The notes below the pieces were generated by a model. The model saw only the letters and a program-made list of their open reading frames with translations. It did not search any database and had not been told where the DNA came from. From Schmidtea nova (Eukaryota), in the NCBI GenBank assembly GCA_044892505.1, contig CM097882.1, forward strand, positions 487,692,001 to 487,756,000: a stretch of DNA of 64,000 nucleotides, written 5' to 3'. Of this stretch, positions 24,650 to 25,215 are shown one piece after another (positions within the stretch are counted from its first letter, which is position 1; each line of letters begins with the position of its first letter). The position numbers and the translations under genes are program-made.

Positions 24650-25215
24650 AAGACAGCAGAACGATTAAGAGAGATTGCAAATCAACAAAGACATGAACAA
24701 TCAGAGTATCAAGATGATAATAATGACGTAAACAAAATAAAAGAAGTAATCAAAGCAATGAATATTAAGCTATTTCCAGAAACAAAGCCAACAGTACTAA
24801 TTGAAAATATAACTGAAAGGATGATGTTAATTAAAAAGGATACTAAAGAACTAGCCACAGAGGAAGCAAATGAAAAAACAGTATTAAAAATTCTGTTTAA
24901 TATAGGGATAGATAAAGATAAAATAATAACGGCCATGGCATACTTGGCCGCAAGATATAAAAAGCTCACAAAGGAAAATCCAAAAGAGCAATTAGAAAAA
25001 GTAGCAACAATGATGTTTAAAAGATTGAAAGTAGAGGCAATACCATGGATAAAAAAGAAATGAGGATGGAAAGTATTATATGATAAAGATACGACGAATA
25101 AAGAGAGTGATACAGATGAGGTAATAAAACAATTAATAAAGAAAGCAACAATAAAACCAAATACAGAGAGTAAATCGATAACTTCCATAGTAATAGTCAT
25201 AATCACTTTGTTTTA
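24650..25215 (+). pseudogene. Bcl-2-like domain with C-terminal hydrophobic segment (element A)
   Basis: BH3-like AERLREIANQ; BH1-like ILFNIGIDKDKIITAMAYL; BH2 PWIKKK*GWKVL, where TGA replacing GGA would restore WIxxxGGW; then SITSIVIVIITLF. Same frame as gag ORF 23138-24616. Confidence 0.72.

Follow-up and report, generated by a model that had tools for sequence, protein, structure and literature searches.

A Bcl-2-like domain is encoded in frame within the single Gag–ubiquitin-like–Bcl-2–Env–Pol polyprotein of Ty3/gypsy elements, and copies of two such elements (A and C) are present in the window, i.e. the whole 64,000-nucleotide stretch of DNA analysed here, which comes from an AT-rich animal genome of 1.25 Gb. 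The domain is real and the core Bcl-2 call of the initial annotation was right. Homology and fold are supported strongly for family A and more weakly for family C. At least nine element families in the genome (A, A2, E, C, D, G, H, I and J) carry the domain. The window copy of element A is disrupted by stops and frameshifts, and with LTRs only 94.9% identical it represents an old insertion. Element C is truncated right after the last part of its Bcl-2-like domain, at about 48326. Both window copies are dead and neither performs the function proposed below; unaltered natural copies elsewhere in the genome were therefore analysed. Features of the window copies are collected in Table 1.

Table 1. 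Features of elements A and C in the window (positions counted from its first nucleotide)
Feature	Positions	Strand	Basis or remark
Element A, 5' LTR	21154..22244	+	begins TGTTGG; 94.9% identity (gaps counted) to 37978-39020
Element A, gag, frameshifted	22394..23596	+	PF00098; 92% DNA identity across 9.4 kb to a natural copy with a single 3,038-aa ORF
Element A, CCHC zinc knuckle of gag	23555-23596	+	
Element A, ubiquitin/SUMO-like domain	24119..24361	+	PF11976 E 0.003, PF00240 E 0.027; both below cut-off
Element A, RGRP motif, stop codon next in window copy	24596..24613	+	
Element A, AERLREIANQ helix, N-terminal extension outside the Bcl-2 fold	24656..24685	+	model residues 8-17, pLDDT in the 60s; structural alignments; spacing
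Element A, Bcl-2-fold domain	24725..25069	+	helix 1 starts at 24725; PF00452 matches, profile, model
Element A, BH3-position helix	~24800-24823	+	
Element A, BH1 position	24893-24937	+	
Element A, BH2, internal stop codon in window copy	25046-25069	+	
Element A, hydrophobic segment, likely Env signal peptide, possible membrane tether	25175..25213	+	hydropathy and PF24664 match; stops and frameshift downstream in window copy
Element A, Env, Monjiviricetes_fusion (gB-type) glycoprotein, in pieces	25253..27282	+	PF24664
Element A, fragmented pol (protease, RT, RNase H, integrase) plus a tail bearing two hydrophobic segments	27249..31511	+	Pfam and hydropathy
Element A, 3' LTR	37978..39020	+	pairs with 21154-22244
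Element C, upstream part (LTR, gag, ubiquitin-like stretches, RGRP, N-terminal helix)	42593..46648	+	
Element C, LTR	42593-43639	+	
Element C, two ubiquitin-like stretches	45522-45758, 46053-46295	+	
Element C, RGRP motif	46503-46514	+	
Element C, N-terminal helix	46569-46598	+	
Element C, Bcl-2-like domain, first part	46649..46947	+	
Element C, BH3-position helix	~46718-46741	+	
Element C, BH1 position	46808-46852	+	
Insertion splitting the element C Bcl-2-like domain	46948..48252	.	TG...CA ends, 4-bp target-site duplication
Element C, Bcl-2-like domain, final part, containing the BH2 tryptophan pair	48253..48326	+	97% to an uninterrupted natural copy (L089); translation

The Bcl-2 likeness that had been read from short motifs goes beyond chance. 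With stops read as X, the window copy of element A matches the Pfam Bcl-2 profile PF00452 under the cut-off (E = 4.8e-4, 21.1 bits), and natural copies of family A exceed it (32.2 bits vs 31.4, up to 34.9). Sixteen element loci among the best 30 lie over the PF00452 cut-off. In alignment A4 the profile matches 11 of the 16 rows, the five rows without a match belonging to families C and D; families G, H and J stay below the cut-off and C, D and I give no match. The profile of A4, made only from element sequences, finds Bcl-xL (E = 5.5e-8), and the 60 rows listed in that search are without exception Bcl-2 family proteins. A profile of all nine families finds Bcl-xL at E = 2.5e-8. When 1.84 billion proteins were searched, the element profile gave 16 matches, of which eight are cellular proteins of Bcl-2 type, seven are element-like and one is a repetitive false match; the seven outside element-like matches have Env downstream in four cases and Gag upstream in two. 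Protein searches based on a word index (P0003 against longer proteins, the polyprotein region and alignment A4) returned no match, and these are weak negatives because the index-free search did recover relatives. Matches in the ESM Atlas were primase-like rows only, with low counts of shared features, and were discarded. Pairwise identity of the domain among the nine families is 14–45%, and the W-x6-W pair of BH2 is invariant in all 16 rows of these families. The BH2 tryptophans noted in the initial annotation are thus conserved, both being retained in 28/28 copies of family A and 24/24 of family C.

Structure comparison supports the Bcl-2 fold predicted for family A, for which Foldseek and VIA both rank Bcl-2-fold proteins first. 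The AlphaFold2 model of the family-A domain, made from an alignment of element rows with no cellular rows among them (pLDDT 83.7, pTM 0.74), predicts a helical bundle around a hydrophobic helix 5–6 hairpin. All top Foldseek rows are Bcl-xL or Bcl-2, with a best E of 6.7e-4 and a TM score of about 0.5. In a VIA comparison with 48,161 chains, ranks 1–35 are all Bcl-2-fold and the first unrelated row has Z 5.2. The best VIA values are Z 12.7 with rmsd 4.6 over 140 positions and Z 12.6 with rmsd 3.5 over 130; a Z of 12.7 falls within the range that VIA warns helical bundles can reach, though it is far above the unrelated rows. Groove-bearing cellular proteins score Z of about 12 against the model, and the poxvirus proteins A52, B14 and A46 score 6.2–7.9. 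The family-C model is poor (pLDDT 56.7), and while its ranks 1–20 are Bcl-2-fold, the best Z is only 7.5; the assignment of family C therefore rests mainly on alignment and tree. A predicted complex between the family-A domain and a BH3 stretch of a host BOK-like protein scored 0.02 in a run in which the element alignment was not used, and it counts neither for nor against binding.

The motifs on which the initial annotation was built were all found in the sequence (Table 1): AERLREIANQ, the BH1-like stretch, the BH2-like stretch with its stop and the hydrophobic run in element A, and the BH1-like stretch in element C. The loss of NWGR that it described is general, the motif being present in 0/16 rows of alignment A6. 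The BH1 glycine is kept only in families C and D, and the arginine position holds K or R in five families and V or L in four. A W occurs in BH1 of a single copy (L092), a minority variant within family A2. Several short host-type Bcl-2 exons (L036, L038, L042, L050, L056 and L059) likewise have no NWGR. The BH3 label given to AERLREIANQ does not hold. This helix begins 80 residues upstream of the BH1 glycine, vs 44–47 for BH3 in four cellular proteins, and it lies outside the aligned fold: structural alignments of nearly all Bcl-2 structures span model residues ~20–153 and start at ~20–29. Most families have a recognisable extension helix, which in the model precedes helix 1 and has lower pLDDT; it may matter, but it is not a BH3. 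The helix that does occupy the BH3 position lies 35 residues before BH1 (44–47 in cellular proteins). Across families it largely retains the hydrophobic register, and the Gly-Asp core is mostly gone; a canonical BH3 (L-x-x-x-G-D) was not found in helix 2 at normal spacing to BH1. In the family-A model one long helix 2 is predicted, with no separate helix 3. Where helix 1 ends, a YP-x-LY stretch resembles BOK and suggested an alternative register, which was rejected, as the Pfam alignments of families G and J and the model put BH3 in the next helix.

It was also proposed that the domain ends in a hydrophobic anchor. The hydrophobic segment is indeed there, about 35 residues after BH2, which is the distance of a tail anchor, but it is not a free C-terminal tail: it reads on in frame straight into the Env ectodomain. 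The Env profile PF24664 begins its match inside the segment (ORF residue 907, profile position 5), and the A[YF]DC with which the ectodomain opens comes immediately after the segment in 9/9 families. The segment is most probably the signal peptide of Env, presumably cleaved. After cleavage it may still tether the Bcl-2 domain to the ER. Capsid-signal-envelope polyproteins of some RNA viruses show a similar signal tether after cleavage.

The polyprotein is best seen in an intact family-A copy of 13.9 kb in total, with LTRs 99.8% identical and a single ORF of 3,038 aa. Pfam matches in this ORF come in the order zf-CCHC (360–376), Bcl-2 (801–866), Monjiviricetes_fusion (907–1552), protease, RT, RNase H and integrase. 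A ubiquitin/SUMO-like domain lies upstream of the Bcl-2 part, its PF11976 match being below the cut-off (Table 1), and it is followed by an RGRP motif which we take to be AT-hook-like. Across the nine families the longest frames have about 2,990–3,550 codons; ORFs of 2,960–3,530 aa lie in elements of about 14–15 kb, the two elements measured from LTR to LTR being 13.9 and 14.6 kb. LTR pairs in natural copies are 98.7–99.8% identical. DNA search of the genome gave 304 candidates for family A and 149 for family C, 40 of which were scored per family, and all counts are lower bounds. Among the loci scored other than the window copies, 4/29 in family A are open across the whole 4.3 kb and 19/24 in family C are open across 3.8 kb. 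LTRs, the order PR-RT-RH-IN, a gB-type env between gag and pol and several near-identical copies were all found, as in errantiviruses of the GAG-ENV-POL gB type. The part of ORF1 after integrase is a possible second surface protein. At window positions 30700-31511 (residues 2779–2996 of the ORF of natural copy L086) a hydrophobic segment, a domain of ~90 residues that by eye we take to be fibronectin-III-like, a Thr-rich stalk and a second hydrophobic segment follow each other in the same ORF, and in family C, too, this region contains two hydrophobic segments.

Viral Bcl-2 proteins are a hallmark of large DNA viruses. The element domain is like them (A179L, CNP058, BHRF1, M11, M11L and F1L, and the scaffold types A52, B14, A46 and K7) in predicted fold, eroded BH motifs and a hydrophobic C-terminal segment; unlike them it is part of a retroelement polyprotein with an anchor that is probably the Env signal peptide, whereas the viral proteins come from free-standing genes and have their own tail anchor. 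The idea of a Bcl-2 domain in a retroelement was correct, but the arrangement is not new, having already been published for planarian Burro (PMC6431247). ORF1 of Burro contains Gag, CCHC knuckles, a Ubi2/SUMO-like domain (PF11976), a BCL2-like domain, an in-frame mononegavirus-like Env and PR-RT-RH-IN (Arkhipova and Yushenova 2019, PMC6431247). The same paper credits Grohme 2018 with noting the BCL2-like motif and suggests interference with apoptosis and ubiquitination. Compared by published description, Burro (GYPSM1), a planarian giant gypsy-like element, and the elements studied here share a single ORF with Gag-Ubl-BCL2-Env-PR-RT-RH-IN, the Ubl match being weak here. However, Burro exceeds 30 kb and its ORF1 of 4,873–5,140 aa includes BIR, MATH, ankyrin and dUTPase, whereas the elements here have 13.9–14.6 kb and ORFs of 2,960–3,530 aa; Pfam searches of three element ORFs gave no match to any of the four. 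By these descriptions the elements are compact relatives of Burro, not Burro proper, and their nearest described relatives come from planarians. They are also like the Platyhelminthes GAG-ENV-POL errantiviruses of HSV/gB type, e.g. Smed_errantivirus_1-6, in gene order, Env type and size (14.5–18.0 kb) as listed in the available part of PMC13524379, and the Env stretch printed there for Smed_errantivirus_1 resembles family C by eye. The available text of that paper does not mention Bcl-2, and the sole match in its available supplement is part of an assembly name. Burro1 B-IAP, as presented in the accessible part of PMC13465017, is likewise a captured anti-apoptotic module in a planarian LTR element; it differs in being a BIR/RING caspase inhibitor and not a Bcl-2 fold inside a polyprotein.

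Architecture and the apoptosis idea are thus already in print (2018–2019), which limits the surprise. In our literature search the motif-level note on planarian Burro was the only report of a retroelement Bcl-2, and no structural or functional study of the domain was found, though the compact families may already be treated in Grohme 2018, in Lee 2026 or in the supplements of either. A search for the term 'Bcl' gave nothing in PMC12440569 and PMC6338049, and the part of PMC11410931 available mentions Burro once. What our analysis adds is a check at the level of the predicted fold, nine compact families that appear recently active and of one origin, and a concrete, putative route to the membrane.

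A and C had been presented as independent cases, and the trees speak against this, giving them one shared origin. The element domains form one branch against 19 cellular rows, with support of 96/92 in the longer alignment and 97/93 in the BH1–BH2 core, although part of this clustering arises by construction, since the outside element rows were chosen by the element profile. No cellular row was resolved as the source on either tree, host-type exons without NWGR included. Three host-type Bcl-2 exons that were tested group with the outside protein P0008 (99/99) and have the best host scores to the element profile. An RT tree of the seven families for which pol was available shows the same groups, (A,(A2,E)), (C,D) and (G,J); its deeper branching differs, with weak support in both trees. 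Because the well-supported domain groups match the RT tree, sequence relationships suggest one old capture of the domain, likely once and from a cellular gene.

Shared variants show purifying selection on the domain among copies. Their dN/dS is ~0.34 in family A (13N/10S, p 0.012) and 0.14 in family C (4N/10S, p 0.0004), where the p-values treat variants as independent and cover the best DNA matches only. Copies were picked by DNA only, and one of the 29 A loci was left out for short coverage. Singleton variants give 0.89 (A) and 0.57 (C), and Env is much tighter than the domain (0.08 in A, 0.00 in C). Between families the domain diverges as fast as the neighbouring linkers: A2 and E share 47% identity in the domain vs 88% in Gag and 89% in Env. 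The alignment nevertheless is nearly gap-free (123/123 and 117/117 positions aligned). Between-family pN is 0.32–0.38, equal to that of linkers, and dN/dS, close to saturation, cannot tell domain and linkers apart. Tree distances in the BH1–BH2 core are ~5–10 times those of RT for the same pairs (A2–E, G–J, C–D), with length retained; diversifying selection is possible.

Regarding the function, blocking of cell death is the likeliest job of the domain, and we put the chances of such a pro-survival role at about even. Our best explanation, which we hold with the same half-confidence, is that the Bcl-2 domain of a Burro-like polyprotein, kept on the cytosolic side of the ER by the Env signal, damps cell-death or ER-stress signalling in the cell that makes the particles. 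The polyprotein would enter the ER at the Env signal, with Env passing to the lumen and the Gag-Ubl-Bcl2 part remaining cytosolic, tethered on the ER face. Signal peptidase would free Env and leave the signal as a tail anchor of the Bcl-2 domain, the element protease may free the domain from Gag, and the freed domain would bind a host death or autophagy regulator through its altered groove. In favour of a pro-survival role we counted the order within one ORF, the profile match to Bcl-xL, the fold ranking, the BH2 tryptophans, selection and the tail-anchor-like distance. The even estimate is based on the model being nearer to groove-bearing cellular proteins than to A52 and B14, on the divergent M11L, which sequesters Bak and Bax, and on the IAP of a related element, which is reported to protect stem cells. 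Counted against it were the absence of NWGR in all 16 rows, the shortened spacing (35 vs 44–47), the lack of a separate helix 3, the poor C model and the linker-like divergence. The ER-type anchor also counts against it, as Bak and Bax act at mitochondria and a signal-sequence anchor points to the ER. According to PMC11209288, Bak and Bax are still bound by viral Bcl-2s, M11L among them, whose sequences do not resemble Bcl-2; the captured IAP of planarian Burro1 is reported to protect stem cells in the part available of PMC13465017, which cites Lee et al. 2026, Dev Cell.

The main rival explanation is a closed-groove Bcl-2-fold scaffold as in poxvirus A52, B14, A46 and K7, in which another surface binds a host defence, autophagy or ER-quality-control protein and apoptosis is not regulated. 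It ranks as the main rival on account of the lost NWGR and the probable loss of helix 3, and PMC2494871 offers a precedent: in A52 and B14 the groove is blocked, and BH3 binding lost, in a comparable way. The long helix 2, the ubiquitin-like neighbour in the families checked, and the rapid sequence change combined with retained length and core fit as well. However, the model scores clearly higher against groove-bearing cellular proteins than against A52, B14 and A46, and likeness to Bcl-xL in BH1–BH2 is still detectable, whereas A52 and B14 have none. We consider a scaffold possible, but well short of probable. A structural role in particle assembly appears rather doubtful. Here the domain would be the cytosolic part of an Env leader, a matrix-like adaptor holding Gag at the membrane where Env folds, for which the leader peptide of foamy viruses is an analogue. 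In 9/9 families and 4/7 outside element-like matches the domain holds the same place, between Gag and the signal of Env, which would suit this, as would its coding in the one ORF, by which it is made in the same amount as Gag, Env and Pol, but it changes much more rapidly than Gag and Env do, contrary to expectation for a fixed Gag–Env joint.

There is very little to recommend a pro-death or pore-forming effector of Bak/Bok type that opens membranes for particle release. Two cellular matches of the element profile, among the longest aligned, are BOK-like by eye and BOK is ER-resident; yet on the trees the elements do not group with BOK-like rows, the Gly-Asp core of BH3, which effectors require, is mostly missing, and an inherited element would damage itself by killing a stem or germ cell. 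Equally improbable is a functionless relic that stays open only through its position inside the polyprotein frame. Stops are selected against anywhere in a polyprotein, and the between-family pN equals that of linkers, but the invariant BH2 tryptophan pair, the gap-free length, a fold detectable across families with only 14–19% identity and a shared-variant dN/dS below 1 largely refute this.

If the pro-survival function is true, these elements have two levels of control over host cell death, Bcl-2 and IAP, and this is relevant to the persistence of transposons in regenerating stem cells. An extension of it to an entire clade of flatworm-type retroelements is speculative and on balance unlikely: the Env signal peptide would be the tail anchor of the captured Bcl-2, each Env delivering one death regulator to the ER, and the surface would evolve several times faster than RT through an arms race with the expanded NWGR-less host Bcl-2 set. 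Hundreds of open copies could then supply a real share of stem-cell anti-death activity, a second arm beside Burro1 IAP. The point of interest is the effect on the host cell of an NWGR-less, signal-anchored Bcl-2 in hundreds of copies.

We noticed several other elements in the course of the analysis. Two ordinary gypsy elements without env lie in the window at 17078-20761 (minus strand) and 33381-37956, the latter nested within element A. A third, heavily decayed env-protease remnant at 39020-42590 has 30–65% amino acid identity, in pieces, to families A–E; no Gag or Bcl-2 part was matched in it. A second ORF at 31378-33374 (natural copy L087:5159-6949, ~870 aa) overlaps the end of ORF1 and has an acidic tail; it has no informative Pfam match, and part of it presumably resembles a DEDD exonuclease, as judged by eye. 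Searching with BIR and dUTPase for a giant Burro that is autonomous gave only BIR elements that lack pol and a single dUTPase locus genome-wide. Two BIR-carrying elements from the genome have no Bcl-2 domain. These ~25-kb elements (L164–L169 and L170–L175; G000:C1 near 7.85 Mb and 14.85 Mb) have LTRs of 4.1–4.3 kb (99.9% identical) and a BIR ORF of 399 aa; neither a Bcl-2 match nor an Env start motif nor a long ORF for a polyprotein was found in the two copies. BIR candidates number 1,295 genome-wide, and the ~25-kb elements look like non-autonomous carriers of a Burro1-type IAP.
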